Assembly (NCBI GenBank): GCA_051294375.1
Contig: CM119265.1
Span: forward strand, 10,805,042-10,869,041
Reading direction: 5' to 3'
Source of the DNA: Paraspadella gotoi
Taxonomy: Eukaryota > Animalia > Chaetognatha
Length of the DNA: 64,000 nucleotides
The translations under genes were made by a program, and so were the position numbers. Below the pieces are notes generated by a model, which did no database searches, was not told where the DNA came from, and saw only the letters and a list, made by a program, of their open reading frames with translations. Of this stretch, positions 2,789 through 46,991 are shown one piece after another (the stretch's first letter is position 1; each line of letters opens with the position of its first letter).

Positions 2789-3488
2789 TGGTAGTCGGGC
2801 ATTGCCTAGGTTCACCCCGCCTAGAATCATGACACTTTCAGTTGTGACCCGGTGGCTCATTGAGTAAAGCCATCAGCTCATGACCACTAGGTACCGGGGT
2901 CAATCCCAACCCGGTACCTACCCTGCGGGAAGCGTGAGGGACGGCCGTAAGCCGCCTTGGGGGCATGGCAACCCTCAAAGCCTGGTTCCAAGCCCAGGGA
3001 CGCCGTTCCATGGCTGCTAGAGGGGGTTATAGAAGTTACGGACAGTCATCTTCAGCCCACGTAGCGCCTTTATCCATACGGTGGAGCCCATCCTGTCGAG
3101 CGTATTCCAACCTTCTGATTCCAGGGCCCTTGTCTAGCTGAAAATTGCTCCCCTCCCTCCACTGAAGCAGTGCAGGGTGGGTTACAATCTGGGGGGCATG
3201 TAGTCGGGCATTGCCTAGGTTCACCCCGCCTATGAGCATGACTCTTTCAAGTTGTGGACCCGGTGGCTCATTGAGTAAAGCCATCAGCTTCATGACCACT
3301 AGGGACCGGTTCAATCCCAAACCCGGTACCTACCCTGTGGAAGCGTGAGGACGACACCGTAAGCCGCCTTGGGGGCATGGCAAACCTGCAAGCCTGGTTC
3401 CAAGCCCAGGGACCCGTTCCATGGCTGCGAGAGGGGTTATAGAAGTTACGAACAGCTCATCTTCAGCCCACGTAGCGCCTTATCCACA
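2789..3488 (+). mobile_element. Family A miniature LTR element (TRIM/retrozyme-like): LTR 2789-3078, internal 3079-3198, LTR 3199-3488; tRNA-like module + twister-like motif in each LTR
   Basis: ~290-bp direct repeats with TG..CA ends, AGTA TSD (2785-2788 / 3489-3492) and GGGGGGCA purine tract before the 3' LTR. No convincing coding capacity. Confidence 0.88.
2925..3006 (+). ncRNA. Putative type-P5 twister ribozyme (family A 5' LTR)
   Basis: GCGGG-AA-GCGT-GA-GGGA-CGGCCG-TAA-GCC-GC-[P3 hairpin]-G-CCTGG-TTCCAAGC-CCAGG. The L4 loop UUCCAAGC resembles the twister UCCCAAGC loop. T1 GGGA/UUCC and T2 GC/GC can pair. Predicted scissile site U2948/A2949. Confidence 0.72.
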
Positions 3489-3779
3489 AGTAAAGTATTT
3501 GTTATAAATAATAAAACGAATTTTTGTTTTATTATTTTTTTTATATTTTTTTTATGTTTTATCTTACTCTTTGATTATTAAATGAATAATATTAAAGCTA
3601 CCTCATTAATCTATTATAAAAATAAACAATATCCTAATATTTGATTTATTATAAAAATATTTTTAAACTTTTTATAAATTATTAAAAAAAATATTATTTT
3701 TCAACTTAATTTTTCAAATTAATATTATTGAAATTTGAAAAAAATTAAAATTTGCCTAGGGAACCCACCATGGTCCCAT

Positions 3780-8090: not shown

Positions 8091-9590
8091 AATATCGTAA
8101 TGTTTTGTGCAAGTGGAAATGAGTTTAAATGGAAAAAATATAAGTCACGTTTACTTTATTTTAAGGACATCGATGATGATAAGCTGTATATAAATTTATA
8201 ATTAATTATTAAATATTAAAATTAATTAATTAATTAATCGATTAATTAATTAATTAATTTTCGTAGGCAGATCCGACATTGTTTGCTCAAACTTGTTTCT
8301 TAACCTCCAGCCAGTGGCATGTAGAGAATTGGCGGGCTACTCCACATTTTGGTTCGTCCTGAGCCCTCCAGTAAGCTAGGCTCATCCAACCCTCTACAAT
8401 TAACAATAGAAGTTAGAAAAAAAAAAGGTTTTCAATTGATTGGGAACTTTTAAAAATGACATATTACATTTTATATCATTTCAAAGACCCCAAGAGCTTT
8501 TCCAGGACCCCCCTTTGCTTTGTGGAAGGTTTCTAACCCTCGATACACCCCTGCCCCCACCATTTCCAGAGTGAGTATACCTTTTTAACAATTATAACTA
8601 CAAGCCTGAACCTTCTTATATTTTACCTTATTTCCTGACAGCCTTACAAGACTAGTATAACAACTTATGCCCCAACTAACTTTAATTTATATAAAATCTA
8701 GCATTTATATGGTGGCTTTTATCCGAAAAGACTTTTTATTACCTCTAACTAGCATATACCCATTAAAAGGTAAAACTTTATTACTGTAGATCCACGTTCT
8801 TAAAAGAATCTAAAAATATTTTAGGATTTTTTATGAGGATAAAGATACGATGTGGGCTGAAGGTTATTGTTACTAGAAAGATAATGGTATAGGTAAGGTG
8901 GCCATTAAGGAGGGCCAAAATTGATCACTTTTTATCATTAAGAGTTCTGTAGTATAAAATTCCTTTGTCCATCATATACTTAATCAATATTTACAATCAC
9001 TTTTTTAACTAGTGAAGCACAGTATAACATTGAAGCATTTAAATATTTATCAATGCATAGGCAATGAAAAATTAAAATTATATTTTTTAAATTAAAATTA
9101 TATTTTTTAAAAACTGATTCAGATAGCCCATAAAAAGTATAATGCGTTTTTCAATATTTTGATGATAAGTGAGTCAAATAATGGAAAAACTTTATAAAAT
9201 CATCATCATCATCATCGTACCATAATTTTTATAGTTTTTTCTGATTTTAACCAATAAAACATAAAAATTTGGAAATCTTGTATTAATATTTTTTATTTAT
9301 TTTTTTAAGCTCTACCCCAATATGTTTTTAAAAATTCTGATTTTGAAAAAAAGATTTTTCATGATTTATAGTAATACGATAAGCTTTAAATGCTTCTATG
9401 TTATTAACTATACATAAAATCTAAAATTTTTTTGTAATTTTGTTATCCCACAGGGATGCTATAACGCTATTTATATTACAGAACTCTTAGTTTTTACTTA
9501 GTGGCCATATAGAATAGAACAAAAATAAAGTATGTAGTCGGGCATTGCCTAGGTTCACCCCGCCTAGAATCATTGACACTTTCAGTTGTT

Positions 9591-9664
9591 GACCCGGTGG
9601 CTCATTGAGTAAAGCCAATCAGCTCATGACCACTAGGTACCGGGGTTCAATCCCAACCCGGTAC
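9591..9664 (+). promoter_or_regulatory. tRNA(Met)-like Pol III internal promoter inside family A LTR
   Basis: A-box-like TGGCTCATTGA (9598-9608) and B-box GGTTCAATCC (9644-9653) at tRNA spacing, with a CTCATGA anticodon-loop-like segment (CAT). Confidence 0.7.
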
Positions 9665-9671
9665 CTACCCT

Positions 9672-9751
9672 GCGGGAAGCGTGAGGACGGCCGTAAGCCG
9701 CCTTGGGCGCATGGCAAACCTCAAAGCCTGGTTCCAAGCCCAGGGACCCGT
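9672..9751 (+). ncRNA. Putative type-P5 twister ribozyme (second, more diverged copy ~10082-10162)
   Basis: P5 GCGGG/CCCGT; P2 GCC/G(C)GT; GA-GGA T1 with UCC of L4; UAA at 9694-9696; P4 CCTGG/CCAGG closing UUCCAAGC. Confidence 0.72.
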
Positions 9752-12700
9752 TCCATGGCTGCTAGAGGGGGTTATAGAAGTTACGGACAGTCATCTTCAG
9801 CCCACGTAGCGCCTTATCCATACTGGTGAGCCCATCCTGTCGAGCGTATTCCAACCTTCTGATTCCAGGGCCCTTGGTCTAGCTGAAAATTGCTCCCCTC
9901 CCTCCACACTGGAAGCAGTGCAGGGTGGGTTACAATCTGGGGGGCATGTAGTCGGGCATTGCCTAGGTTCACCCCGCCTATGAGGCATGACCTTTCAGTT
10001 GTGACCCCGGTGGTCATTGAGTAAAGCCATCAGCTCATGACCACTAGGGACCGGGTTCAATCCCAACCCGGTACCTACCCTGTGAGAAGCGTGAGGACGA
10101 ACCGTAAGCCGCCTTGGGGGGCATGGCAAACCCTCAAGCCTGGTTCCAAGCCCAGGACCCGTTCCAATGGCTGCGAGAGGGGGTTATAGAAAGTTACGGA
10201 ATCAAGTCATCTTCAGCCCACGTAGCGCCTTATCCACAAGTAAAGTATTTGTTATAATAATAAAACGAATTTTTGTTTTATATATTTTTTATATTTTTTT
10301 ATGTTTTATTCTTACTCTTTGATTATTAAATGAATAATATTTAAGCTACTCATTAATCTTATTATAAAAATAAACAATATCCCTAATATTTTGATTTATT
10401 ATAAAAATATTTTTAAACTTTTTATAAATTATTAAAAAAAATATTATTTTTCAACTTAATTTTTCAAATTAATATTATTAAATTTGAAAAAAAATTAAAA
10501 TTTGCCTAGGGAACCCACCATGGTCCCATGTGACTAGTTTCACGAATGGGTTCTTTCTGTTCCAAAAGTCGACAAAGGGTTACGCCGTGTTTACTCTTTA
10601 GAATGTTATTTTTTCACACTATTCTGTATACAAAATTACCTTTTGACTACATTAGCCACGTCAAAAGCATCGTAAGCATCCTCAACTCCGACACTCGCGG
10701 ATGACAAAGGAGCTTGAAGTGAGACAGCGTTGGCATCTTCTTGAAACCGAGCCAGAAGCCGACTGATGCGGGGTTCCACGCCAGAGTGTTTGTAAACGCC
10801 CTTTGACTCGATTCCATAGCTCAGAATATTATCTAGGCATGTCTCAATGAGGACAGGAACGTTTCGCTAATAAATTGGGATGACATTTTTTGGGTCACTT
10901 AAAAGGCATCTTAAATCTTACTCAATTGTTCATAATACAACGGTATTTTTTATGTTTACCATGATGGAAAATATATTTTTTGGTCAATAAATAAGTTTTA
11001 ATAAGTAATATGACCTCCTTAAGACTGAATAAAATGATTATTTCTCAATAGCATAAAATTATTTAATGCATACAAATATTTCCAAAAAGAGGCTGACTCC
11101 AACTGTTTTTTTGATCAAAAGGACTACTTACATTATTGTTAATATTATATCTCTGACACAAACTAATTGACGCTGAAGAAGGCTTATAACTAAAGCCAAA
11201 ACATGTATGTTTTCTCTGAAAATAAATCGTTGTTGTAAATTAATTCACCTTTAATTCGCCTTTATCTCTGACATTATATTTTTTATCAAATTTGGACTCA
11301 TTTCATACTTGGTTCTAATAATACATTCAGAGGTAAATAAAAATGATAACTTTGCTCACAGAAAGGTTACCCAGAGCCTTAAAACTTTTATTGATACTTT
11401 ACAATATAAAAATAATACCCTGGAGCATCTACAGCATTAATGTATTTATAATACCGCTCTTTTTTGACATATGTATTAAGATTCATCCCTGAATCTATCT
11501 TAATAAAGATGATACAATAACCATTTGACATGAGACTGAGAAAAGGCAGGGATTTTTAATATATAGTAAAGTAATAAAAAAAACCGGAAAAAAGTATAAA
11601 TGAAAAGTGTAGATATGAAAAAGTTAAAAAAGAAGGAAGCATTTTTTTGGACAAGAAATTTTCTTTTGCATGGAACTCTTGTATTTTTTGTTGTATATAA
11701 ATGAGACACTGCTCATATGAATCATAAGAAGCCAAAGTATCTTGATATCTAAATTTTATTTTTCGATTCTTACATTAAAATGCCGAAAAATAGCTGGAAA
11801 GTAGCCGCGACAATTTTTTTTTCATCATGGTACTACAATTTTAAGAAATAATAAAAAATGCAATGTTTCTAAAATGCCTCGACTCAGCTTTACGCTTTCA
11901 CCTGGCTGAGCAATTGCTCCTCGATTCTGTCTCCCGCTTTTCTGGACCCAATGATAAGAAGCAACCACTCTTCCGTTCTTTGCTTATCTTCCGCTTGCAG
12001 GCAGATGGAACCCCCGTCGGGTAGTTGAAAAAGTATTTGAAATCCCGTCAAATAGACTCCTGATGAGAAAAGATTTTTGTATTAAAACGGACAATGACTC
12101 TACTCACCAGAGACAGAGGTAAAGCTTTTTGTTAACTGTAGACCTAGATTACTAGTGGCGTCGGGATGAAAGGCTCGGCACGCCTTGATGTCTTTCCTCA
12201 GTTCGATTTGGAAAGCAGACTCTGTTTCTTTCACAAAAACCCAGAGGATTGTGTCCTTAATAAATAAAAACTAAGTTAATAAAGAAGAATTTGAGGTTTT
12301 TTAAATTTTTTTAAAATCATTAATTAGGCTACTTAAAAAAGAGGTTTGCCGTTTGGCTTAAAGTTAAATTGTACCTTGAGGACAACCCAAGCCGGTTTTT
12401 GCGCATCATTCATTTTAAACGTTAGTTTTCCGAATCTTTGAAATCTTTCTTCAAGAAACGGCTGCATGGTAGAGGGGAGGGTATTGAAAGCGAGAGACCG
12501 CATCCATTTTATCTGATAATTTGAATAACTAATTTATTCCCGAATAAAATTTTGCATTGCAAGTAAACTACCTTTTTTTCATAGGTCTCTGTTGCATAAT
12601 TATGTACTTTTCCCGGGGTACTTATAAAAAATCCGTGCAAATCATCCCTTGTTTATGAAAAAAAGTTTCACGAAGAAATTTCAAAATGTTTTATAAAACT

Positions 12701-15700: not shown

Positions 15701-15806
15701 TTTTTTTTTTTTTTGTTTTTGTTCAACATACTTAACAATCAACTCAGAAAGACGAAACTAAATTTGTAGTAATACATAGTTACCTTATTATTACGACAGG
15801 GGGGCA

Positions 15807-16238
15807 TGCGGCCATCTGAGTTAAATATCAGATATGGAAACCTTTTGTTTCATATTAAATCAGTCAGCAGTCACCAGATGGTTTCCCGCTTTTTAAAAAC
15901 CTATTGTTTGATTGTTTCTTTAACTGATTGATTCAAACTGATTTTCACTCTTGTTTTTACTCTCAATAATAAATGTTCTCATCAAATCATTTATACTTGT
16001 TTTTATTCTCTCTCCAATGTAACTAACTACATTAAAGAATGAGACAGAAATATTCATCAACTAAGATACACAATTGTGAACAAACAAGTAAACAATTATT
16101 CCTAATGTGATGCGATTCACCTTCCCGCGATACGCTGACTCATTGGACTGAAGTCATTCGCTGCGCTACCTTAGGACTGCATCGCACGGTCGCCTAGACA
16201 CTTTGCGGCGCTCTGGCACCGCCCCGGGTCTAGCCACA
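15807..16238 (+). mobile_element. Candidate LTR of a further family
   Basis: Preceded by AGGGGGGCA (same PPT style as family A). Starts TGCGGC and ends GCCACA (imperfect TIR, TG..CA). AATAAA near 15968; GC-rich structured 3' part. No second copy or TSD is visible. Confidence 0.45.
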
Positions 16239-16799
16239 TATATTTAATTATTTAAAATATTTATTTTCTATATCAAAACATAATCATAATAAACTTACTA
16301 TATATGTATTTGAAAGCCTATATTAGGTAGGTAAGTCCCTTATAATATAAATTTTTTCTTCAATCATTTGGCATACTTATAATTTTTTTTAATTTAAATT
16401 ATCTGAAAAAAAATTAAAATTATATTTTAATAAAGAAAAATTAATTACAAATAAACTATTAAAGATAGAATAATGGTTATGGACTCAAACGAAAAAAAAT
16501 TGTTCATAGATTATGGATGATGCATAATATTTTCATTTTTAAAAAAAATTTAACCATTTTTAAATTTTTTTTCTTCTACTTTATTGTTTTTATATAGCTA
16601 ATTTTAATATTAATTTATAAAAAACTGTCATTAGGAAAAATTTGATTACCCTTTTTTTGTGTAGCCCAAAGGTCCGGAAACGTATCCCGGGATATCTCAT
16701 TCTTGTGCACTCCATGCCGATTAAATCGATGTAAAAAGGAACCGTGTATATATATGTACATGCAAATATTTTGACCCATATCCTTTTCTGAAATACTCA

Positions 16800-19700
16800 C
16801 CGATCCCCGAAGACATCATTGTTTTTTATTTCTGAAATAAGAGTAACATCCCTCAACGATACCAAATCCAACGCGTCCAAAGAATCTGGTCCTTCAAAAC
16901 ACTTCAAAAAACCATCGTTGGAAACACAAAATTGTTTTTTGTTTACTTTCATTTTTTGCTTGCTTTTTTTAAGCACTGATGATTTACGTTTCGTTGATAA
17001 GACCGTCAAAAAGTCTTTCATTGGTTGTTCTGTTAGATAAGAGTAAGATGTGACATGTGTCAAGATTGAATATTCAATCAATGTTAAATTCTTATTACCA
17101 GTACTATAAGAATTGATTTCACCACATTTAGATGGGTTGCTGTGGAGTTCAATTAAAGCTGCTTGGGAGTTTTGGCCAAAACTGATTTAAAATATTTTAA
17201 AAATCGCAAACAAAAATGCCATATTTTTGAAAACAAGTAATAACCTATTATAAATTACCTTAAAGCGAAATGATACAAAGATTTGTGGCCACTCAGGTAG
17301 CGGTTTTCTTCTGTTATGTTCGCCCCAAACACAATTAACTGCAACGTCTTCTTCAGATTATTTGTCTAAAAAAATTTAAATTCATTTTTTAATGCATACC
17401 TGGAAGATACTACAATTTTCATTTTAAACCTTCAAATTAGTAGTAAGAGCGCTATCCAGGTCGCCTTGATTTCGTCTTCGATCGCAAAACGATTTTAGTT
17501 TGTATTTTGCGATGACGAAGTTTTTCCTCTCAAATTGAGAAGAGCTTCGCCGAAGGACGTTTCCTCCCAATATATCCAACGCTCTGTCGTTACCTAAACG
17601 CGTTTTCAAATCAAGACTTACATTACTCGTTTAATTTCTTCGTCATTTCTGTAAGTCTGCAAGAAAATTATCACCGATGGAGGAGATGATTTCAAGCTCT
17701 TCAGCTCGCCAATCTTCATCATCCGTCTTGAGCGACATGATTCTCAAATTTAGGACGCCCACTTCCCGATGAGCGACGCAACAATTCTTGCAGACCACGA
17801 TTCCCCAGTTGACGACGGCCCAGTCAGGATCGGGATTACCGCAGTCTGCGCACGCTCGGTTGGAGGCATTGTTTCGCACTCTAAACCAAACGCTAAAAAT
17901 TCCGACGAGATAAGAAATATTTTTTAACTATTTTATAAAAACTTAAGTTTTAACACTTAAAAGTTAATACATAAATATAAACAGACTGCCAGATTTTTAA
18001 TGCAATAATAGTCAGTAACCTTCACCTTCTGGGTTGCAACCGTCTTCCCTCGGCGATGGCCTCCTCCATCGTACTTTGCCACTTGGCCAAGCTGGCAACA
18101 GAATCAAAGGCGAAGCCCAATTCTATCGATGACCCCAAATGCAGAACGAGTTCGTGATCGACGTCAAAAATCCCGGTTGCCTGCGACCAATGCAAGATTG
18201 TGAATGAAATTGTATTACTTTTCGAGTATTAATATGATTTTCACATTATAGGAATATCTAGAAATTCAAAAGATGGAATCGAATGGAATCGCATGGAACC
18301 ACTTGGAACCGGATCAAAGACTCAGGAAGAAATAACCGAAATGGTATCAAGCATTCTGTTAATGTTAATAATAATAATAATATTCTATTTTCTATTTCTT
18401 ATTCAATAAGCAATACTCACTTCAATTTCGGCTTGTCCCATCTGAACAACCATCATCGGGACATCGTCATTAAAATCTCTCTCATCTTTGTAAATGCAAA
18501 ACCAGGGGCCTTTGATGGCGACGAATTTGGAGCCCAGAATCTTGCATTCTTTTTCCAAAGGTTGCATTGACTTCACTTCGATGAAACCTGGAAACAAAAG
18601 TCAAAACTCTCAAGCATACAGAAAAGCCTCAGAAAAAAAGACAAATTTGACTAAAACATATACATAAATATTTATTATATCGCCTACAAGTACGACAGTT
18701 TTACGAAACTCATAAAGTAATCTATGAGTCATTGTATGACTTAAGTCAATTTTTATTAAAATATTACCTTTTTGGTTTGGGTCGTATAGTAGTTCACCGC
18801 CGTCTTTTTCCCAGTCTTCAAGACAGCCCTCCACTTGCATTATCTGCGAACCAGGTATTTTAATATTTAAAGGAAAATTATTGAGGCGACATTAATACAT
18901 TAATACGTATTATTTCTAAATCAAAAAATCAAATGAAAAAAAGAAAATATAGTATAAAGCTTAATATAGAGAAAAATATACTTGACCTGATTAAGGCGTT
19001 CAATCCATTGCCTCATCTCATCGTGATTTGCGGCGGTGAAGATGTATTTTCTTTTCCTGGTTTTCAATTCGAAACTGTTCTGTGAATTGGTCCTTCCGGA
19101 TGACGTCTCGACGGGTGACACTGAATTTATGCCACGGATGACCAGTCTGAAATTAGCCAAAGACTAAAAGTTTTAAATTTTGCGTTGTATGAAATAAGAT
19201 TTAAACTTAACTCGCCTGGAAAATAAACTTTCTTTGTCAAAGTAGCTCGTTAATTCTCCAATGAAGCCTTCCCCCGTTATTCGTTTTGTCAAACGATACC
19301 ATCGCTTAACATGTGATTTGGCACCTGGAAACAAAGTTTTAATTAAAATTTACTTATTAAATACGAAACATAATTCGAATCAATGAAGAATGTTAAAAAA
19401 CCCTTAGTAATTCCCACTCACCATGTTGAGTTAAAACCTGCCGACTCAAGCGGCCTTCGTGCAGCAGCATCGGGCTTGGTTCAGTAGACCCAATCTCAGA
19501 ATATACTTCCGATTGGGTCCTTTGGCTTTAGAATTGAGATCAGAAGTCATTATTTTCTATTTATAGTTTTTCAAATATTAGGTGTTATGGTGGACTAAAA
19601 TCGACCAACCGTTCATCAGCGGCCATTGGTGCCGGAGGCAAGTCATTCGCCTCCCAACCCAAAGGTCCGGGGTTCGAGCCCGGTAGTCGCCTAGCAGTTA

Positions 19701-20350
19701 AGGGGGACGGGGCGCTTAACCCGCCTGTAACATGGTGTTACAGCCTGGTCCGAAGCTCAGGGACTGCTTATATTGAACGGTTCTGTCATTAACACATATC
19801 AATAATTACTGTCTCTTCAGTGTGTATATATGTATATAAATTAGTTTATTGTTTTTTAGCTGTTCAAAACCCTTATAAATTTATAAATGGTAGGTTACTT
19901 GTAATGAAATACCTTGGAGACATACTTCCATTGCCAGAATCCGAAGAGACCAGACCTAAGTAAAACAAAGATTCAATGCATTGCAACATGCGTTTTAACT
20001 ATTTGTATAAGATTTTGACATAAAAAAAAACCGATTTCATAAAGGATAAAATGATCACGTATACATTTTTATTTCGTTCCACGGACCACGGTACTTACTT
20101 TGCCTTTCTCCAGTCATTTGATAAGCTTTATCAATAGAATTTCTATTTTCCAGATGTTGAGGCGATGACAACGGTGTCGGCTCGGACGACTGCGCAGATT
20201 CTGAGCCCACTTCAGTCGCAACGCAGCTTTTTGGAACGTCGTAATCGCCAGTCGTCGGCGCTGACACCGGCGTCGTTTTTTCTGAGATTGAATCCAAGGG
20301 TCGGTTGTTGATCGGCATTTGATAGTGGGATTCGAGGAAGGAGACAGCTG
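16800..20350 (-). CDS. Multi-exon Arf-GAP with PH domains (ARAP/centaurin-like; PH-PH-ArfGAP-PH); 5' and 3' ends uncertain (possible further exons ~20900, ~21900, ~24040 and 15030-15490)
   Basis: ArfGAP finger CADC-x16-CKNC-x4-R (NRACADCGNPDPDWAVVNWGIVVCKNCCVAHR, ~17770-17865). PH motifs 'NSFELKTRKRKYIFTAANHDEMRQWIERL', 'GFIEVK..FVAIKGPWFCIYKDERDF' and 'KQFCVSNDGFLKCFE'. Short GT-AG introns. Confidence 0.85.
19619..19691 (+). promoter_or_regulatory. tRNA(Gly)-derived Pol III promoter module in family B LTR
   Basis: Acceptor-like GCGGCCA/TAGTCGC, 'TTCGCCTCCCAA' as in tRNA-Gly(CCC), and B-box GGTTCGAGCC in a CCGGG/CCCGG stem. The anticodon stem is degenerate. Confidence 0.7.
19693..19768 (+). 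ncRNA. Putative type-P5 twister ribozyme (family B)
   Basis: P5 AGCAGTT/GACTGCT; P2 CCC/GGG; GA; T1 CGGG/UCCG; P1 loop GCGC; UAA (19717-19719); GC/GC T2; P3 CTGTAACA/TGTTACAG; P4 CCTGG/TCAGG closing UCCGAAGC. Confidence 0.82.
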
Positions 20351-23300
20351 GGAAAGAGAGTAGGAGATTGTTAAGGAAGATAGTATGGTGGACTAAAATC
20401 CACCAACCGTTCATGAGCGGTAGCGCGGAGCATAAATACAAGATATGATATATGACCTCTTGTGCCCCCTTAATTTTTTGTATTTGATATAATACTATCC
20501 CCCAATATTAAAAAAAATGAAAATTCGCTTGCTCAATTTTCCCGTTCTATCGATTTAATAAAGCAATTTGATGCAAAAAAATTGTAAAAAAATTACAAAA
20601 TTTGATATCAAAGAAAGCTGATTAAGTTCACTTTTTGAAGTGAAATATAGCTAAAACAAACAATTTAAACCAGTTTTCATCCATAAAAATAAAAAAAATC
20701 AGTTTATATAAATATTGAGTGATTCTAAAAAAATAGATATTCTTATAACAAAATTGTTAAAAATTAAGCAAAATGGAAAATAAGTTCCAAGCCATATAAC
20801 GCACACAATATCCTGTTTAAAGCTTATAAAAGCTTTTAGTAGCTACATTAAACTTTATACAGCTTATTATAAGCTTCACCAAAAAAATATTAATTGACTT
20901 ACCATAGCATAGGCCTTACCCATTACCACTCTCCTCCCTTCCGTAGATCGCTCTGGCCGATCTGTCTTCTTTTTTTTTTAAATGAAAAAATTCTCATGAA
21001 AGACTGGTAAAATCGTTTAAATAATACTCTGTTAAATATTAGTACAATTAATAATAGAATAATAATAATAATAATTGAAAGTCTTTTTTTTTTTTTTTTT
21101 TTGCGCTCGCGGAAAGATAAGGAAAAAAATATAGAAAAGATTAGGAAAGATGGAAGAAAAAAAATTATGGTGGGTTGGGAGGATTTGTCGGTTAGCCAGT
21201 GAGTCGGTAGAGCAGGGAAACTTAATCCTGGGGTAGGTTAAACTAGGGGAAAGGCCTGATTGGGCGCCACTCAGAAGGTATGCACCTATCTAGGGATATG
21301 GGCTGACTGTTATCATGAAGGGAGAAGAAGTGAGAAGGGTGAGATATATGAAATTGGTACAACCAATTAAAATTATCCATTCATTTATAAATAAGCTATC
21401 TTGCCCTGACTTGGACAGGCTTTATATTAGTAATAGGAAAACAGGTACAACAAAGGGGAATAAGGGTACATAAAAGGGGAGAGGGAAGTAGGAAGGCTTG
21501 AGGAATGAGGACCCCGAGATCGTGAGGAGAGTGTCTGAGGCCGATCTCCAAGACTGTATCCGTGACTCCGGGATGAAGAGGAGGGGACGATGAGGGGAGG
21601 ATGAGGAGGCTTGAGAGGGGGAAGAGAAGACCCGGGAGAGAGAAAGGTTCTGGCGGTAAGGGGGGGGTCTATCCTGATAATTTGTTCAGCCATATTAATT
21701 TTAGATCAAAAAATGTTTTATCACTATTTTTATAAACCTCTATCAATTTTGTTTAACATTTTGTTGGCTCATTTTAGTCTGTATAACCAGGATTTTAATT
21801 TCTTACAATAAATAAATATAATCCTAAATTGTATTGACGCTCGTGGCGGTGTGTGGGCATGGCCATAGGGAGAAAAGGGGCTCGATGTCAGACGGCCGTG
21901 GATTCGATATCGGCTTCTGACTTAGACTTTTTCGAGAGAAAGAACGCGACTACGACAACGCTTTGTTGGAAGCTTTATCTCTCTCTCTCTCTCTCACTCA
22001 CTCTCTGTCTCTCTCACTTTCTGAGAACTTCTGTCTCGATGCTTACGGTCCAGTCGTTTGCAGTCGCTCGTCCAAAAAAAATGGTTTTGACAAGAGTCTC
22101 GATGACTTTATCTCCGTTGAGTGTAAAACGAGAGTTTATTCTCGGTGACAGACGAGGCAAATATGTGACAATAACGTGACAAAATAAGTCGCGAAAACCC
22201 TCTAAAACGACTGAAAAGCTGGTCATAAAAATTATGAAAGTAAACATTTAAAAATGATCAACGTTATAAACAGGCCGAGATTAAGCCAAACAACTCTGAT
22301 CTTGAATAACCATTTTCATTTATTTAATTTTATTGTTAATATCAGTTTTAGTTTTTGTCACTGTCGCTTTAAAAGTGTTTTGTTTCATGCTTTTGTTTTT
22401 TATTCATTGTTTAAATTTTTAAAATAATAAGAGAGAGTTTTTAACATTTACAAACAATAAATTTAGTAAATATTAAAAATAATCTTCTCTGACTCTGTTC
22501 TTATCTCAAACTGGAAAAATGGCAGAAAAAAAGAATATCAGACTTGACTTAGAGGCAACAATAGAGTAAGGTAACCACCGAGGGTGAAATGCCTGATGCC
22601 TTTTATATAATAAACAAAACCTCTCCTGCTTTGGAGGATTTTTTTAATAATTTATTTTTCTTTTTGTTTATATTATGAAAGTTTTAAACACCATTTGAAT
22701 AAATACACAGATCCATAAATTTATTAGTTTCCTAATCGCCTTAGTTTATTATTTCGCTTTACTTTTTGTAGTTCAAAAAAACGAAAAACTAAACTATTAA
22801 TAGATAAAGTAACTTTTTACAAATGAAAACAATATATATCTCCTTATTTCATATATATTTGATTAAAACATTCTGATTAACTATCTTTCCTATTATTTTG
22901 AAATTCTTTATTGGTATTATTTCCGACAATGAAAAAATGCAATTTTTTAATAATATTAAACATTATTTAATACAAGTTTTTTATATTTATATATGTTGAA
23001 AAGTTTTAAATGCTATATATTATAAAAATTAATAATACTAACCACTTTATTTTATTTAAATTTATTTTTTTTCCGATTTTTTTGCATCTTATCGCATTAT
23101 AAAATCGATAGAACGGAAAAATGGCCAAGCGAATTTTTTTTGTTTTTTTTTTTGTTAGAAATAGTTTTACATGTGTTTCAAAAATTAGGAGGGCACAAGA
23201 CGTCCTTTATTATTTCTTGTATTTATTAATCACACACTTTTCTACCCAAATACAAAATTTAAAGTCAATCGCCCCATCCACTTATGAGTAATTGGTATTC

Positions 23301-24044
23301 AAATAGTGAAATTTATTTTTTTATTTTTTCCATTTAAACTCATTTCCATTCGGACGATTCCATCAAATATATAGCTCAATACACACACTTCCCTACCCAC
23401 ACACAAAATTTCATTCCAATCCATCCATCCAATCACGAGTAATTAGTGTTTTTTGCTAAGGTGGGACGGATGGACGGACATCGTTTTTTTTTTGCATAAT
23501 TTATCATAATTCGATGTTCGGACATGATATAAGTGAGTGCCCGACAATATTGAGGGGGCGGACCGACGGACCGACAAAGTGAATTATAGAGTCGGGATCT
23601 GCTGAAAGCAGTTCCGACTAAAAAAAGAGTAAAACGTTCTGACAAAATAAAAAAATTATAGAGGAATCTACTTTATTATAATTTTTTCTTTGATGAATTC
23701 CTTTTTAATGAACATTCGAGTAAAGTATTGAAAAGAAAATTTTTTTTATACTTATGAAATTGGTACAACCAATATAAAAATTATCCATCCATTTAATAAA
23801 TAAGCTATCTTGTCCCTGACTTTCGACAGGCTTTGGTGGTTTAAGGCCTCCATCACACTTGCAAGATAATAACATTTTAGAGTTGACAAATTAACCGATT
23901 TTAACGGTTAATCAGTTAAATTTTGACATTTTAACCGATAATTAAAATTTTTTAAATTAACCATTTTTTCACGCCTAATGATAAGTGTTGGAATTGGGTT
24001 AAAAATAGCAAGGTCATCGCAAATTATCTCCCTTACCTGATTCG

Positions 24045-25450
24045 TCGGCCGATTTATGTCGCCCAAGCATCGACCGTACGCCGCTTTGAGATTCGGTATC
24101 TGGTTCGTCTAAGGGGGGCGAAAAATCAGAGACACATTCTGGGGGAAGAAGAGAAGCGGACGGGAAGTTTGAGCACAATACAATCGAGCTGAGTATTTAA
24201 TGTTTATAAAAACGTATTTGTGGGAAAAAAAATAAAATTTGCAGAAAAAATTTTTTTTCAATCTCATATCTCAAGGTAGGGACCGGAAGTGTTTACCAAA
24301 ATTTTTATTTCTTTATCTGCCGAAAAAAACATAGGGAATTCGAAAAAAAAGAAGGCATTTTTAAACAATTACTTTTCGTTGTTATTTAATATTTAGAGAA
24401 CACAAAGTGTTTTGGAATTTGTGACAACGATTTATTTTAATAGACGGACATGTTTCGACTCTTTGGTTTCGAGTCTTCATCAGCATTTGAAATTCTCAAA
24501 CTTTTCAGTTGTTTTCATTGACTTTGGAGAGAAAGTAAGAAGGAGAGAGAGATTGAGAGAGAGAGAGAGAGTTTCCAACAAAGAATTGAGTAAAGGAGTA
24601 AATTACTATATAAAAGATATTGAAAGATGAGACTTGATCTTTGAAATTCAAAACATACAAACATAATTTTAACTGTTATGCGAAAAAGTAATATTTTAAA
24701 TTACAATAATCTAATACTATTTTTGTGGATAAGGCGCTACGTGGGCTGAAGATGACTCGGCCGATTTATGTCGCCCAAGCATCGACCGTACGCCGCTTTG
24801 AGATTCGGTATCTGGTTCGTCTAAGGGGGGCGAAAAATCAGAGACACATTCTGGGGAAGAAGAGAAGCGGACGGGAAGTTTGAGCACAATACAATCGAGC
24901 TGAGTATTTAATGTTTATAAAAACGTATTTGTGGGAAAAAAAATAAATTTGCAGAAAAATTTTTTTTCAATCTCATATCTCAAGGTAGGGACCGAAGTGT
25001 TTACCAAAATTTTTATTTCTTTTATCTGCCGAAAAAAACATAGGGAATTCGAAAAAAAGAAGGCATTTTTAAACATTACTTTTCGTTGTTATTTAATATT
25101 TAGAGAAACAAAGTGTTTTGGAATTTTGTGACAACGATTTATTTTAATAGACGGACATGTTTCGACTCTTTGGTTCGAGTCTTCATCAGCATTTGAAATT
25201 CTCAAACTTTTCAGTTGTTTCATTGACTTTGGAGAGAAAGTAAGAAGGAGAGAGAGATTGAGGAGAGAGAGAGAGTTTCCAACAAAGAATTGAGTAAAGG
25301 AGTAAATTACTATATAAAGATATTGAAAGATGAGACTTGATCTTTGAAATTCAAAACAATACACATAATTTTAACTGTTATGCGAAAAAGTAATATTTTA
25401 AATTACAATAATCTAATACTATTTTTGTGGATAAGGCGCTACGTGGGCTG
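24045..25450. repeat. ~700-bp tandem duplication (24045-24746 vs 24737-25450) containing a Penelope pLTR fragment
   Basis: Collinear near-identical copies differing by single-base indels; possibly artefactual. Confidence 0.8.
24442..24490 (-). ncRNA. Minimal type I hammerhead ribozyme in Penelope pLTR fragment (duplicate 25149-25196)
   Basis: Minus strand: CTGATGA-a-GACTC..GAGTC-GAAAC-ATGTC, with palindromic ACATGT helix III and a GUC triplet. Preceded by the same (CT)n/'tgttggaaact' pLTR context as at 32865-32900. Confidence 0.8.
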
Positions 25451-26736
25451 AAGATGACTGTCCGTAACTTCTATGACCCCTCTAGCAGCATGGAACGGGT
25501 CCCTGGGCTTGGAACCAGGCTTGAGGGTTTGCCATGCCCCCAAGGCGGCTTACGGCTGTCCTCACGCTTCCCGCAGGGTAGGTACCGGTTGGGATTGAAC
25601 CCGGTACCTAGTGGTCATGAGCTGATGGCTTACTCAATGAGCCACCGGTCACAACTGAAAGTGTCATGATTCTAGGCGGGGTGAACCTAGGCAATGCCGA
25701 CTACATGCCCCCAGATTGTAACCCACCCTGCACTGCTTCAGTGGAGGGAGGGAGCAATCTTCAGCTAGACCAAGGGCCTGATCAGAAGGTTGGAATACGC
25801 TCGACAGGATGGGCTCACCAGTGTGGATAAGGCGCTACGTGGGCTGAAGATGACTGTCCGTAATTCTATAACCCCCTCTAGCAGCCATGGACGGGTCCCT
25901 GGGCTTGGAACCAGGCTTGAGGGTTTGCCATGCCCCCAAGGCGGCTTACGGCCGTCTCACGCTTCCCGCAGGGTAGATACCGGGTTGGGATTGAACCGGT
26001 ACTAGTGGTCATGAGCTGATGGCTTTACTCAATGAGCCACCGGGTCACACTGAAAGTGTCATGATTCTAGNNNNNNNNNNNNNNNNNNNNNNNNNGAACT
26101 TCGTACTTCTCGACCCCTCTAGCAGCCATGGAACGGGTCCCTGGGCTTTGGAACCAGGCTTGAGGGTTTGCCATGCCCCCAAGGCGGCTTACGGCTGTCC
26201 TCACGCTTCCCGAGGGTAGGTACCGGTTGGGATTGAACCCGGTACCTGTGGTCATGAGCTGATGGCTTACTCAATGAGCCACCGGTCACAACTGAAAGTG
26301 TCATGATTCTAGGCGGGTGAACCTAGGCAATGCCCGACTACATGCCCCCAGTTGTAACCCACCCTGCACTGCTTCAGTGGAGGGAGGGGAGCAATCTTCA
26401 GCTAGACCAAGGGCCTGGAATCAGAAGGTTGGAATACGCTCGCACAGGATGGGCTCACCAGTGTGGATAAGGCGCTACGTGGGCTGAAGATGACTGTCCG
26501 TAACTTCTATAACCCCTCTAGCAGCCATGGACGGGTCCCTGGGCTTGGAACCAGGCTTGAGGTTTGCCATGCCCCCAAGGCGGTTACGGCTCTCACGCTT
26601 CCCGCAGGGTAGATACCGGGTTGGATTGAACCGGTAACTATGTGGTCATGAGCTGATGGCTTTACTCAATGAGCACGGGTCACACTGAAAGTGTCATGTT
26701 CTAGGCGGGGGTGAACTTGGCAATGCCCGACGTACA
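25426..26736 (-). mobile_element. Independent family A insertion (LTRs 25426-25705, 25822-26070, 26096-26342, 26462-26736; N gap in the middle)
   Basis: Reverse complement of family A with identical termini and TTTT flanks on both sides (4-bp TSD, though in T-rich context). Either one element assembled twice across the gap or a tandem multimer. Confidence 0.85.
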
Positions 26737-36711: not shown

Positions 36712-39700
36712 TGCCTTAAAATATATTACATTATGAAATGTACAACAATGTTAAAATTTGGTAAACTTTAATAATGAATAATATCAACAATTAACTACAG
36801 TAATAAATTAGTGAAATGAAATAGAAGTTCAGAAATGTGAAATATTATTGTTAGTGAGGGATAGCTAAGTAATTAGGAAAAGGGAAATTTCAAGTAATAA
36901 GAAAGAGCTCAAAAATGAGCTGGCCCCCTTGGTTATGAACAAATGAAAGGCTAGATTGATAAGGTCGGGTCATTGGTGTGTCATTGGCTGAGAGGACAGG
37001 TTGGTGGAGCCTACTAGTGCAGAGCTGGGAAGACTTCCTTGCGGGAAGAAACCAAAGGCTACTCGGATGTCTCTCTGGCCTGGTACGCCTGCCGACTGCC
37101 CTCTTCTTGCCTGCTGGCGAGGTGGGGGCTGTCCATTCTTGCCACTTTCGCGACAGGAGTGGTGGCCTCCCCCCTTCCTCCTGCAGCCGTCGCTTTGGGC
37201 GGCGCTCAGTCCACAGAGGAAGGGAATGAGTTGCTGCAGTTGAAGGAGAGGTATCATCTGCCCATTGCCTGCGCAAGGGTCTCCGCCTATCTCGTTGAGT
37301 GGAGATGGGGGAATCATTGTGCGGACGTGGTGGAGACGGGGCCTCCACCACGCTTTTGATAAGCGAATCATAGCTTGGAGGGAGATCGAATCGTCCTCCA
37401 TCACGGTTCAAAGAGGGCTCGAGGGCTTTGATGTAGATTGCCTCTCTAATACCTCTTGAAAACCAGCTTGGGTCATGGGACAGCACGAGACAGTCTGATT
37501 CTCTGAATAGATGGCCAGTATTAGCCTGTGTTCGGCTATAGCAGATAGGTAGTGGCCTCTAGCGTCACGATAGGGTCTCGTATGCTGCTGGAATCGGTCT
37601 GTTAGAGACTTTCCTGTCTCGCCCACGTATGCTGCTGTGCAGGCTTGGTTGCCCGCCCCTGCACAGGCCGCCCAATAGACGGCTCCTGATGTTTTTGGTC
37701 TGGGGATTTTATCTTTCGGTTTCACCAATAGCTCACGCAGAGAGCCGCGGGCCGTCACTGAGTGGAGATCCCCTGCTTTGCTAGCACCCGCACCAATGAC
37801 TCAGTGATCCCTGGTGGTAGGGGAGGGACAAGTGACCCACGTTCTTTGGGCGCTTCTGCTTATTTCTCATTTTTGAGCTCTTTCTTATTACTTGAAATTT
37901 CCCTTTTCCTAATTACTTAGCTATCCCTCACTAACAATAAATATTTCACATTTCTGAACTTCTATTTCATTTCACTAATTTATTACTGTAGTTAATTGTT
38001 GATATTATTCATTATTAAAGTTTACCAAATTTTAACATTGTTGTACATTTCATAATGTAATATATTTTAAGGCACTGTCTCTCTCTCTCTCTTCTCTCTC
38101 TCTCTCTTCTCTCTCCATTTCAATTTCTTTTCACAAACTATCTCTGTCCTCACCTTCACCTGTCCCTAATAAAAAACTGAACACTATCCTTTCTCTCAAA
38201 CTCTGTGTTGGAAACTTTGCTCTGTCTCTCTCTCTCTCTCTCTCTTCTCTTTATGCACAAAATTCTCTTCAAATTCACAAATTGAATTGGCGCTGAAAGA
38301 AGACTCGTATGTGAGTCGAAACATGTCCGTTTCACTATGAAATAAAAATCGTTGTTAAATCTCTCTTCAAACTTTGTTCTAAACTAAAATCACAACGAAA
38401 CAGAAAGGAAAAAAAACACATTGATTTTATTTCAAATAGAGTTATGAGGATACAGTAATTATTGTTATATGTTATTGACAGAACTGTTCAATATAAGCTG
38501 TCCCTGAGCTTCGGATCAGGCTATAACACAATGTTACTGGCGGGTTAAGCGCCCCGTCCCTCTTAACTGCTAAACGACCACCGGGCTAGAACCCCGGACC
38601 TTTGAGTTGGGAAGCGAATGACTTGCCTCCAGCACCAATGGCCGCTGATGAACGGTTGGTGCATTTTAGTCCACCATAGTTAATTATTTTTTTTTTTTAA
38701 ATTTGGCAATGCTAAAGGACTTGCACTTCTTTTTGGTTCAAAAAAGAGCTATTATACTTATAGCTCTCAGAAAATAGGGAAAGACATACAACATCAAAAT
38801 CGGGTCTGAAAAGAATTACGAATTACATTTCACTGTCATACCTCAATTTGCTGAATGAGAGCATGCCCAGGCAAATACAGGCAGTAGTCGATACCGAAGA
38901 AGGGCATACCAAATATTGAGAATATTTTACCCATGTTTTACATACTTTTTATTGAATAAATAAATTATGTTATATACTTTTTTCCAAGATAGTAGAGGTT
39001 AACACTTCGCGTTGTGGCCGCGACAACCCAGGTTCGATTTCTGGTCTCGGCATTTTTGTAACGAAGTAGGTAACATAATAACAAGTACGAATGAAGTAGA
39101 ATTGAGAATAATAAAAAGACGCGGAAATTTAATTTCACCATAAAAAGTGATAGTTTCCTCGCGTTCCGCCTTTTGTTTGCAATGTTAAGATAACAATTTC
39201 TTTTGTAACTCTTACCGCCTGACCCGAGTTGACAAGCGACGACGATCCAAGACAAGGCCGTGGCCCAGGCGACGCGGGAAAAACTGGCGTAGACGACATT
39301 TTGGGCAGACGACAAAGGAAAGACCTCGTGGTAGGATTTCAGGGGAACGAGGATAAGGAGGGCAAGAAGACCCAAGGAGAGGATCCAGAGGATAGTGGAC
39401 ACCAACTAAACATAGAATTAAAACTGAAAAAAGATTTCTATCAGTCTATGCGAAAAAATTTAACCAGTTTTTGACCGACTTGATATTTCAAGATGGCGGC
39501 GATTTTAGGGCAAGAAGATAATCGTAGGGCGACGATGAAAACACCGGCGAGGATTCCGACGAGAAAGGGACCGATTCGCGCCACGGGGAAGATGTAATTG
39601 AAAGGTGTCCACGCCTGGTCAGTGTCGCTGCAATCCAAAATTAATGAGCGTTAATTAATCATCCGATAAATCTAAAGTGAAAAATTATAAAGGACTCACA

Positions 39701-41803: not shown

Positions 41804-41861
<58 letters not shown>

Positions 41862-44800: not shown

Positions 44801-46991
44801 AGCGATTTTTACTCTCCCGCGACCGAAGGAGTAGCCCTTGAACTGATGGAAGAGAAAAACATCAAAGCCGTGATGCGCAATCTATCATCCGCGACAAGAA
44901 TTGTATATCCAATTGAATATCGTCGCCATTTTTTCGTAGAGAACGTTCAATATTTAATCAGAAAATGGAAGAAAAAAAATAGCATGTCAGACGAGATGAT
45001 CACTACAATTTTGGAAGAGATTACAGGCGAATTGGACGAAGATCGTGATCGAGTGTTACGCGACATTCGACATGAGGGGTTTGCACAGTTAAAAATGAGT
45101 TAAAACATGCTATGTCAGGAAAAGATGAAAACATTCCGAAAATGATCGATTTGATTGAAAACGAACCACGAGATAAACGAGGACCAGTCTTACTCAACTA
45201 GCGCAACGCCATCAAATACCGTTTTGCCAAGCAACATGCGCCGACCGTATAGAATATAGATCCAGGAGAAAGAATGGACGAATGTCTATCATCTCGCAAT
45301 GGAAGCAGATTTAATTAGAAAAGAGATGGAACATCTTGACGGAATCAACGTGGAATACTGGAGGATATGAGAGAATAAACTACTAATTTTAGAAATTCTG
45401 GTCGCGGACAATAATCTATATTCGTGCGCACAAAACATTTCATTTCGACTCGTTGTTACGGTGAAAAACACTTCTCACTACGTTTAAATGAGATTCTTTC
45501 GTTGTGTTCGCCGATTTTTGGAATTCAAGAGAAAGTTTAATTTAAGCCAAATTTATACCAAAGTCTCGCGTGGCAGGAAATCGAGCAATTAGCAATACAA
45601 AGTTTATTTCCTCATCAAATCTCTGACGTTCCTCATCAATCTAAAAGACGTTTCCATCGATCCAAAAGACGTTTCCATCGATCCAAAAGACGTTTCCATC
45701 GATACGAGGACGCATCGAACTCGGGGTGGGGGAGGAGCTGTTCGATCCAAAGACTCACAAATCGTGATATCTGTGTTTAAACTTTATTACGTCGTCACAA
45801 GGATTTACCGTTTATTTATGATCTTTTCTCTACATTCGTCATCGTCGTGATTCACTTATTTTGTCAAAATTCAGTATTTTTTAAGTATTATTCATTGCGT
45901 TCTGAATCCTTACGTTTTCTTTATATAATTCATTGTAATTCTTTTGAATGTTAAAATAATGATTTTTGATATTATTTTTTATACTGTTTGAATATTTATA
46001 TGCTTTGATTATTTTATTAAGGTACTATGGTGGACTAAAATCCACCAACCGTTCATCAGCGGCCATTGGTGCCGGAGGCAAGTCATTCGCCTCCCAACCC
46101 AAAGGTCCGGGGTTCTAGCCCGGTGGTCGTCTGGCAGTTAAGAGGGACGGGGCGCTTAACCCGCCTGTAACAAGGTGTTACAGCCTGATCCGAAGCTCAG
46201 GGACTGCTTATATTGAACGGTTCTGTCATTAACACTTATCAATAATTACTGTCTCTTCAGTACCCTTTTTAAGAATTCTTCAGAAACTCAAAGATTAAGA
46301 GATAAACTGTTTGATATCTTCGTCGATCCACTCCGGCCGCCAATTCTTGCCTTTGAAGGGTTTCCCCTAACGACCGAAGCGGCTCGCCGATAGATTCTCG
46401 GGGGCGTTTTCTGGAGGGACGGACCGGCGGGTCCTAACACTTGGACCATTTTTTAATAACTTGAGATTTTCATTGGAATTTTTAACTCAGACAACCCCAT
46501 CATAAAATTAAATATTTAAAATTGAAATTAAAATATTTAATAAAAATATTTTAAATTTTTTCATTATCTTAAACTATTCATTGATTATACGCATTTAATC
46601 GCAACTCTTAGATAAATATTTGAACCGTGAACTCACTTTTAAGCGCCACTCTATGCAACGCGGCTTCGGACGAATTGTCCAATTGACGCCGAAATTCCTT
46701 GAGCGCCCGAAAACAAATGTGTGACACGTCATCTGCCGCCGCCGCTTGTCCGAAATCGGCGGTGAAGCGAACCAGCGTCTCTCGCAGCGGAAAGGGCAGC
46801 GACCGGAAGAGGCGTTCCGCTTCGGCCGTCCAGGGTAAGTTAATCACGTGACGATCGCGGAGGTGAGGGCGAGACTCGGCGCGGACGAGCAAGTCGAGCC
46901 ATCGCCCGCGATTACGCAGGGATTGGGAGGAGGCGAAGGGGAGGAGGAGCAGAAAGAGAGGTAGGTGAACATAGGAAATTATATTTTTCAT
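35424..46991 (-). CDS. Multi-exon nose-resistant-to-fluoxetine-6 (NRF-6)-like / acyltransferase-3 family membrane protein
   Basis: Signal peptide MKNIISYVHLPLFLLLLPFASS (ATG 46991). NRF-domain motifs 'DAFGRPSAGFFEGANVWVGSLDECL' and 'VGTCFPAKCQPEDV'. Acyltransferase motifs 'DGIRVLSLAWIIAGHT', 'FAVDSFFLLTG', 'FYLHRILRLTPLY', 'WWTNLLYLNN', 'SWYLACDMQFYLLSP', 'RIGPFLVG', 'SRVAWATALSWIVVAC', 'LSRVSYSAFLLH' and 'IERPIMKLE'. Confidence 0.92.
36395..38420 (-). mobile_element. 5'-truncated Penelope-like element in NRF-6 intron with ~520-bp inverted pLTRs (36395-36919 / 37866-38391)
   Basis: GIY-YIG 'GAVYWAACAGAGNQACTAAYVGETGKSLTDRFQQH' and 'REAIYIKALEPSLNRDGG' (37400-37760), related to the 30854-33031 element; hammerheads in both arms. 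Confidence 0.92.
36450..36500 (-). ncRNA. Minimal hammerhead ribozyme (mirror copy 38285-38335 on +)
   Basis: Minus strand: GCG-CTGAAGA-a-GACTCG tatg TGAGTC-GAAAC-ATGTC-CGT. Confidence 0.82.
38445..38678 (-). mobile_element. Family B 234-bp solo LTR (twister-like motif 38496-38571)
   Basis: Reverse complement of 19586-19819 with GTTA TSD (38441-38444 / 38679-38682). More diverged, with P3/P5 mismatches. Confidence 0.85.
38983..39052 (+). pseudogene. tRNA-His(GTG) pseudogene or degenerate copy
   Basis: TCGCG-TTGTGGC-CGCGA anticodon arm, CCAGG-TTCGATT-TCTGG T arm and following TTTTT. Two acceptor-stem mismatches and a shortened D arm. Confidence 0.75.
44061..45103 (+). CDS. Frameshifted intronless ORF(s) of the LTR element (gag-position protein, function unknown)
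   Basis: ORFs 43971-44417 and 44414-45103 overlap at a T-run (GGATTTTTTGA). Acidic/Pro-rich N-terminus followed by a helical region; coding-like but stop-interrupted sequence continues to ~45600. Confidence 0.5.
45641..45703. repeat. 21-bp tandem repeat x3 (CCAAAAGACGTTTCCATCGAT) upstream of PPT
   Basis: Directly visible. Confidence 0.85.
46026..46259 (+). mobile_element. Family B 234-bp solo LTR (twister-like motif 46133-46208)
   Basis: TATGG..CTTCA with GTAC TSD (46022-46025 / 46260-46263); P4 here is the perfect CCTGA/TCAGG. Confidence 0.87.

Follow-up and report, generated by a model that had tools for sequence, protein, structure and literature searches.

Within a 64-kb window of the genome of the chaetognath Paraspadella gotoi (64,000 nucleotides of contig CM119265.1, assembly GCA_051294375.1, positions 10,805,042 to 10,869,041 of the forward strand), three copies of a 234-bp repeat, family B, each join a degenerate tRNA-like head to a predicted type-P5 twister ribozyme. 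In window coordinates, the copies lie at 19586..19819 on the + strand (B1), 38445..38678 on the − strand (B2, the most decayed) and 46026..46259 on the + strand (B3). Judged from their sequences, they are likely the solo long terminal repeats (LTRs) of a small LTR retrotransposon without coding capacity, a terminal-repeat retrotransposon in miniature (TRIM), of the Helenus type. The twister fold is well supported as a real structure by covariation across family B and two further repeat families of the window, A and C. On balance, we lean towards the reading that B and A are Helenus-like TRIMs that replicate as retrozymes, by way of an RNA circle released by twister cleavage, and that the B copies are solo LTRs of such an element.

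Structure and covariation of the predicted twister

The predicted twister of B1 occupies 19693..19768 (+ strand). Its parts are P5 (19693-98/19763-68), the general base (G19706), pseudoknot T1 (19708-10/19750-52), a P1 made of a self-complementary hexamer (19711-16), the predicted cut between U19717 and A19718 (element positions 132/133), P2 (19720-22), pseudoknot T2 (19723-24/19755-56), P3 (19725-43) and P4 (19744-48/19757-61). The cut falls where the original prediction had placed it. The stems P2, P3, P4 and P5 comprise 3 bp plus one bulge, 7 bp, 5 bp and 6 bp, respectively, and the 6-nt P1 forms either 2 bp with a 2-nt loop or, in the Rfam alignment, 3 bp without a loop. The corresponding twisters lie at 38571-38496 in B2 (− strand, predicted cut 38547/38546) and at 46133-46208 in B3 (+ strand, predicted cut 46157/46158). 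Both L4 pseudoknots (3 bp and 2 bp) are Watson–Crick paired in all three copies, the catalytic G, the cleavage-site AA and the L4 A are intact in each, and 82 of the 84 pair cells form (28 pairs in three copies), including all 28 in B3. According to the consulted parts of McKinley et al. (PMC11662667), twister activity needs the pseudoknots and the catalytic residues, while flaws in P1, P2 and P4 are tolerated and P1 is dispensable; the sensitive features are all present in B.

Comparison across families carries the case for the fold. We aligned 10 twisters using MAFFT, comprising all three B copies, four of eight A copies and the three of four C copies with a full ribozyme, and excluding indel-noisy A copies. 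Across 15 core pairs, 144 of 150 cells pair (96%), and eight of the 15 pairs show two-sided change among B, A and C, including two of three in T1 and one of two in T2. Sliding the pair partners lowers pairing to at most 52%, and none of 500 shuffles reached the covariation score. The general base G and the A that follows it, together with the AA after the cleavage site, are invariant in 10 of 10 copies (G19706, A19718 and A19719 in B1). With only the three B copies as its input, a covariance model found the eight A and four C twisters at 20–31 bits (E ≤2e-4, under a rough calibration); its other matches were two antisense self-matches at ~16 bits and, at ≤8.9 bits, five weaker ones, which are unrelated background. 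The conserved twister structure that the original prediction described is borne out by these results. Its contrast between A and B was right as well, the L4 pairing of T1 being exactly CCG-CGG in B and UCC-GGA in A, except that P5 does not align column for column between the two families. As a second, diverged family, B therefore supports long-term selection on the ribozyme.

Family B copies and their relatives

The three B copies, delimited by BLAST and alignment, are 234 bp apiece and align without gaps, with pairwise identities of 213, 225 and 216 of 234 positions (91–96%). Read in element orientation, each begins with TA and ends with CA. Comparison of the flanks finds an exact 4-bp target site duplication (TSD) around each copy: GTGT for B1 (19582..19585, repeated at 19820-19823), GTTA on the + strand for B2 and GTAC for B3. 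A flank match of 3 or of 5–8 bp fails in all three, and 4 bp alone fits. There is no poly-A or simple-repeat tail and, among the three copies in the window, no 5′ truncation; terminal inverted repeats are also lacking, the ends being related only through a subterminal 9-bp stem. The coordinates, length, ends and distinct TSDs of the three units thus agree exactly with the original prediction, and its view that they were inserted in an integrase-like manner rather than as short interspersed elements (SINEs) is supported; its list needs a minus-strand orientation for the middle copy and the addition of one fragment. This fragment is the 5′-most 37 bp of a B copy (20384..20420, + strand), and a BLAST search of the window with the three copies found no further full-length copy. 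An unrelated repeat, 76% identical to 23045-23226, follows from ~20432 and probably truncated the fragment. All three TSDs (19582-85, 38441-44 and 46022-25) open with GT on the + strand, and AGGT flanks are common to two of them, which hints at a preferred target.

Every B copy contains 33 bp upstream of the tRNA-like head, a U3-like segment located at 19586..19618 (+ strand) in B1. A short hairpin lies in the segment, with perfect pairing in B3 alone, and so does one arm (the 5′ arm, 19607-19615 in B1) of a 9-bp long-range stem whose 3′ arm is at 19774..19782 (+ strand). This stem encloses the tRNA-like head and the twister; its central pair probability is ~1.0 in B1 and B3, and it is lost in B2. 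Were transcription to begin at the head, as for a SINE, the 33 bp ahead of it would be lost from the transcript, and under the standard LTR cycle a downstream, LTR-like copy would therefore be needed to supply them. We infer that B is an LTR because its ends and 4-bp TSD are fixed, because 33 bp precede the tRNA-like head, and because the homologous family A includes a complete TRIM.

The head of B1 (19619..19691, + strand), likely an RNA polymerase III (Pol III) promoter, contains a non-canonical box A-like motif (19627-19638) and a canonical box B (19671-19681); the heads of B2 and B3 lie at 38645-38573 (−) and 46059-46131 (+). ARAGORN reports no tRNA in B at its default threshold; when this is relaxed, it places a Gly(CCC) tRNA at element positions 34-106 of all three copies, with spurious overlapping calls alongside. 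The earlier description of the head as tRNA(Gly)-like is thus matched only by the relaxed calls. The box B core GGTTC is present in 3/3 copies, and box A retains YGG; the box A of family A carries TGGCT. By its sequence, the head of B is a degenerate promoter-like remnant and not a tRNA gene. Aligned with A heads, those of B score z 4.3–5.2, against z ≤1.1 with the His-like and Lys-like sequences of the window, these two being the only comparators. Moreover, head and twister are collinear between the families, with 61% identity over 142 columns (B 50-179 versus A 75-215). Families A and B are thus probably diverged relatives whose heads look homologous. Because these heads align best with each other and are collinear with the twister, a single ancestor followed by drift is at least as likely as separate donors, and the different tRNA donor once proposed for B finds no support. 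Of the other tRNA-like sequences, 21188-21277 (+) is decayed, has a CCA end, sits beside a family C fragment on the opposite strand and presumably resembles tRNA-Lys; two ARAGORN calls are doubtful, tRNA-His at 38982-39053 and tRNA-Tyr at 2912-3006, which is really an A twister.

Family A provides the complete element. At 9533..10238 (+ strand, TSD AGTA), an LTR (9533-9822) is followed by a TGG-led primer-binding-site (PBS)-like sequence from 9824, a G6 polypurine tract (PPT; 9939-9944) and a second LTR (9947-10238). Each LTR contains a tRNA head and then a twister, and the unit from cut to cut is 9695-10105 (411 nt). The element at 2790..3488 (+) has the same flanks, so that the two are one duplicated insertion and are counted once. 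At 25426..26736 (−, TSD AAAA), four A LTR copies surround an N gap and are probably one element assembled twice across it; we set aside the idea that they are rolling-circle multimers, since the upstream flank is also duplicated, the N gap is spanned and the variants alternate. The window thus holds two independent A insertions. Family C, at 40494-41001 (+), 28762-28975 (+), 23753-23875 (−) and 21347-21423 (−), carries a P5-type twister without P3 and no tRNA head; its 3′ end is fixed and always followed by TA, its 5′ ends vary, and a 323-bp unit is directly repeated at 40494/40817. It is possibly a non-LTR or tandem twister retrozyme.

The proposed replication cycle and its rivals

In the cycle that we favor, Pol III would start near element position 34 and read through the element. 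The cut at 132/133 in the 5′ LTR would shed the tRNA head and leave a 5′-OH, and its counterpart in the 3′ LTR would leave a 2′,3′-cyclic phosphate. With a twister cut in each LTR, the full-length transcript would therefore lose the tRNA head and have no terminal repeat. For plant retrozymes, it has been argued that such an RNA must circularize to become a template and that it can give solo, full or multimeric copies (Cervera et al., PMC4918200; here and below, statements on published work refer to the consulted parts of each source). A host RtcB-type ligase, an enzyme that circularizes animal retrozyme RNA in vitro (PMC7229834), would close the unit-length RNA. A Gypsy-type reverse transcriptase would then prime at the PBS and travel around the circle more than once, rebuilding both LTRs together with the 33 bp upstream of the tRNA-like head, and integrase would insert the product, generating a 4-bp TSD. 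Recombination between LTRs, or short cDNAs, would give rise to solo copies.

Several observations weigh against this reading. The Rfam Twister-P5 model (RF02684) aligns over its full length (positions 1-58) to 19703-19760 with zero non-canonical pairs, at a score of 16.3 bits versus a gathering cut-off of 37.6 (E 0.54), and a whole-window Rfam scan reported no B copy and only two C copies, likewise below the cut-off. Within B, two-sided change occurs at none of the 28 pairs, the invariance of the core (0 of 24 columns changed) is not significant (P ~0.07), and the ten aligned twisters represent three lineages and not ten events. The twister is not the minimum-energy fold of B (z −0.6 to −1.5 versus shuffles), and plain minimum free energy (MFE) folding does not recover it. 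The nested twister fold lies 8–17 kcal/mol above the MFE, a gap that leaves pseudoknots uncounted and has no validated twister as its yardstick, and a competing helix joins the T1 strand to P2; B3 is the copy nearest to the twister fold, with probabilities of 0.58–0.97 for P3, P4 and P5. Box B has one mismatch in B2 and in B3, and box A is non-canonical in all three copies, lacking the usual TRGCY start. No B element with two LTRs, a PBS and a PPT was seen in the 64 kb, and a motif scan of the window for a Gypsy helper gave two irrelevant matches. The 411-nt circle of A, taken from an indel-rich copy, folds no better than 60 shuffles (z −0.5). A T4 terminator is absent from both B and A, an absence that is not significant (P 0.28–0.56) and that we dropped as a sign of Pol III read-through. 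Finally, that B is an LTR, is cleaved, is transcribed by Pol III and passes through a circle is in each case inferred from one window.

B1 and the 20384 fragment were ruled out as the LTR pair of one element: B1 has its own TSD, no TGG-led PBS follows it, and the 564-bp spacer between them contains what is probably a host exon on the minus strand. The pyrimidine tract of its splice acceptor would account for the purine run before 20384.

Among the rivals, a solo LTR with an active twister may depend on a linear template and on only one of the two cuts: either the 3′ cut would stand in for a Pol III terminator, or trimming of the start by the 5′ cut would leave a terminal repeat for ordinary strand transfer. 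This alternative is possible, if rather doubtful. Many published Helenus LTRs show a T-run straight after the tRNA (by eye, uncounted), whereas A and B show none, and in two wasp Helenus LTRs a hammerhead-like motif stands in its place. The long-range stem requires the U3 segment, which is found only in the 3′ LTR transcript, and the A circle is not unusually stable. The ribozyme is, however, the same in both LTRs, the lack of a T4 is not significant, and a fish Helenus group without the T-run has no evident ribozyme in the consulted sequences. Nor does folding distinguish the two positions: the energy gaps in 5′-LTR-like and 3′-LTR-like contexts are 13.3/11.6, 7.8/9.3 and 16.8/15.9 kcal/mol in the three B copies, without asymmetry, and the comparison gives no support to a 5′/3′ LTR folding switch operated by the long-range stem. 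Taken together, the missing asymmetry, the non-significant T4 absence and an A circle no stabler than shuffles do not separate the circular from the linear route.

It is unlikely that the twister is an inactive or irrelevant passenger, captured by an ordinary Helenus-type LTR from, for example, the 5′ end of an RTE-type long interspersed element (LINE). Twisters are indeed known at RTE/Perere-3 5′ ends (PMC8501958, PMC7761336), and the sub-threshold Rfam score, the unfavorable predicted folding, the minimal P1 and the lack of covariation within B speak for this reading. A passenger would sit poorly with the compensatory changes that keep both pseudoknots among A, B and C despite divergence to ~60%, or with catalytic positions that are intact in all three B copies, and ~94% of the natural twisters tested have cleaved (PMC11662667).

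We consider it improbable that B is not an LTR at all and is instead a stand-alone 234-bp unit, whether SINE-like, a non-LTR retrozyme monomer of tandem origin or a derivative of a DNA transposon that makes 4-bp TSDs. The criteria of a tRNA SINE do not describe the three copies, whose heads do not stand at the start, which have sequence ahead of the tRNA in every case and which lack a tail or 5′ truncation; an active internal ribozyme would, in addition, behead a SINE (PMC5786205). The fixed 4-bp TSD is common to all three, and the absence of terminal inverted repeats speaks against a miniature inverted-repeat or other DNA transposon. The homologous family A, moreover, is a two-LTR element. 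A stand-alone unit would explain why only single units are seen (three copies plus one fragment) and why B starts with TA and not TG, and it has a precedent in Schistosoma SINE-like repeats, which join a Pol III promoter to a hammerhead without LTRs (PMC6765202).

A P5-type twister descriptor, written after the element had been seen, matched eight sites in the window (3/3 B, four A and one C). Chance resemblance within a GC-rich repeat is scarcely credible as the source of the fold: although this relaxed descriptor averages 0.87 matches per shuffled 64-kb window and the Rfam E value is only 0.54, just 6 of 20000 dinucleotide shuffles of B1 match it, and the fold recurs with compensatory changes in two other repeat families.

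Relation to known elements and significance

Kojima (2024, PMC10886601) defines Helenus by a tRNA in the LTR, a 4-bp TSD in animals, a Gypsy-like PBS and solo LTRs. Like Helenus and TRIMp3, B is a short, non-coding LTR-like unit that encloses a tRNA-like segment and a box B GGTTC; it shares with animal Helenus the 4-bp TSD (3/3), and Helenus likewise comprises solo LTRs, several families per genome and listed families known only as solo LTRs. Some published Helenus LTR consensus sequences also start with TA, and the ~700 bp of family A fall within the Helenus range of 311–1263 bp. The differences are that the Helenus tRNA mostly lies near the 3′ end of the LTR, often followed by a T-run, whereas in B it is followed by the twister; that B lacks the TRGCY box A of most families; and that a PBS and PPT are seen in A and not in B. 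Pol III transcription, only predicted for B, is unvalidated for Helenus itself (PMC10886601). On the features that sequence can test, B would thus fit Helenus except for the box A motif, the two-LTR feature being known from A alone. The consulted text of PMC10886601 contains no occurrence of ‘twister’ or ‘self-cleav’, and a search of its consensus file for six L4-type motifs and four motifs of B, A and C gave no twister-like context, although line breaks can hide motifs. Two sequences in this file deserve separate mention. The LTRs of Ajax-1_NGe and Ajax-1_LiLo contain an 11-nt match to 19715-19725, the cleavage-site region of B, followed by a hairpin and no visible L4, which may be chance. 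In both Helenus-2_SyJa-LTR and Helenus-2_SyUm-LTR, the tRNA is directly followed by a motif resembling a type III hammerhead, with complementary loops, which was identified by eye and is unmentioned in the consulted part of the paper.

Plant LTR retrozymes (PMC4918200) resemble B and A in carrying a ribozyme inside a non-coding LTR, in their 4-bp TSD and solo LTRs, in an RNA that runs from cut to cut without an R repeat, and in a promoter upstream of the ribozyme (PMC9695139). They differ in having a type III hammerhead, a tRNA-Met PBS next to a PPT, LTRs of 300–400 bp, highly self-paired circles and, in the consulted text, no reported tRNA head. B and A have a predicted twister, an animal host, a tRNA-type promoter and LTRs of 234–290 bp; their circle is only predicted, and the 411-nt A unit (z −0.5) is not highly self-paired. 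A carries a TGG-led PBS-like site and a G6 PPT, and neither is seen in B. B would work like an LTR retrozyme and yet, with a twister fold in place of a hammerhead, is not one by definition; Rfam scans reported no hammerhead family over the B copies. A 2026 preprint (10.64898/2026.07.22.740005) still describes LTR retrozymes as primarily plant elements with type III hammerheads.

Other systems share single features. Schistosoma Perere-3/RTE LINEs (Liu et al. 2021, PMC8501958) contain a retrotransposon twister with a weak or variable P1, but they are autonomous non-LTR elements without a tRNA head or LTR, and their P1-type ribozyme lies at the 5′ end, where the target site completes P1. In Schistosoma SINE-like hammerhead repeats and animal non-LTR retrozymes (PMC6765202, PMC7229834), a Pol III promoter precedes the ribozyme and tandem ribozymes give circular RNA; these have type I hammerheads, tandem arrays and larger TSDs, and no LTR, PBS or PPT. 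Cassandra, a 5S TRIM as described in PMC10886601, likewise has a Pol III promoter inside a TRIM LTR, yet this derives from 5S rRNA and not tRNA, the hosts are plants, the RNA is linear with short terminal repeats, and no ribozyme is reported there.

The only retroelement twisters in the literature searched are those of non-LTR Perere-3/RTE (PMC8501958, PMC7761336, PMC9695139). The same literature, which covered few subscription papers and not Repbase, holds no report of an LTR twister or of a tRNA combined with a ribozyme in a TRIM, and the texts searched hold no prior report of this ribozyme, which may be listed in the supplements of PMC11662667 and PMC8501958, outside that scope. In metagenomes, a 22-nt A/B pattern had two matches, one in a coding region and both lacking the remainder of the ribozyme and any repeat; it had none in viral contigs, and a 20-nt B pattern had none in viral or prokaryote genomes. 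These blanks say little because such collections contain little animal DNA. The original prediction of a whole class of elements, not a one-off, holds to the extent that A, B and the twister-only C share the window and that a hammerhead seems to follow the tRNA in two wasp Helenus LTRs; tRNA-bearing TRIMs (Helenus, PMC10886601) and ribozyme-bearing LTRs (retrozymes, PMC4918200) had already been described. The new part is the combination of a tRNA head with a ribozyme in an LTR, and the twister class of the ribozyme.

The remaining content of the window provides context. Intron-split host genes lie on the minus strand at 11890-20507 and 38965-43417, and B1 and the 20384 fragment are probably in introns of the former, in antisense orientation. 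We take the first to be ArfGAP/PH-domain protein-like and the second NRF-6-like acyltransferase; 13 open reading frames of the window compared with Pfam gave no match above the cut-off, and two exon searches were also blank. Two broken reading frames, 31044-32516 (+) and 36890-37800 (−), are 81% alike in inverted orientation, without a Pfam match, and are presumably Penelope-like reverse transcriptase/GIY-YIG. An 18-bp unit is tandemly arrayed at 30029-30442, with a minus-strand open frame of repeated hexapeptides. Near-identical multi-kb duplications (2750-5065 versus 9500-11822, and 54510-58617 versus 59896-63997) that lie close to N gaps (at 285, 14927, 26071 and 58836), together with many single-base indels, point to an unpolished assembly in which haplotypes or overlaps were duplicated.

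We tentatively raise a broader possibility, with a low probability of holding in full. Animals may have a class of Pol III-driven LTR retrozymes in which the tRNA promoter is shed by the LTR ribozyme and replication passes through circular RNA, a solution reached more than once (by a twister here, by a type III hammerhead in the wasp Helenus-2_SyJa and Helenus-2_SyUm, as seen by eye). The P1 self-complementary hexamer occurs in all three families (3/3 B, 4/4 C and 3/8 A; 10 of 15 copies), with a duplex energy of −8.3 kcal/mol for B and −9.1 for C, and two LTR twisters may therefore pair into a ‘double twister’, as amphibian retrozyme hammerheads whose minimal helix is palindromic act as dimers (PMC7229834). 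A double twister would cut well only in the full-length transcript, leaving solo LTRs quiet. Caution is warranted, as P1 is dispensable and five A copies are non-palindromic. In both independent A insertions, one noisy copy aside, P1 is palindromic in the 5′ LTR and non-palindromic in the 3′ LTR (sites 3347-3367, 10093-10112, 25563-25544 and 26202-26183; n = 2, in an indel-rich assembly).

As described so far, LTR retrozymes are mainly plant elements with hammerheads, animal retrozymes are non-LTR, retroelement twisters sit at LINE 5′ ends, and Helenus lacks ribozymes. If B and A cleave and circularize, these groups would be joined by an animal LTR element with a twister. Such an element would be a natural counterpart of the engineered tandem-twister system for circular RNA expression (PMC7229834), and it would give eukaryotic twisters a concrete biological role. 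The question of how Pol III-driven TRIMs define the ends of their RNA would likewise gain a testable answer, and a re-screen of Repbase TRIMs, tRNA ‘pseudogenes’ and SINE calls for ribozymes suggests itself.

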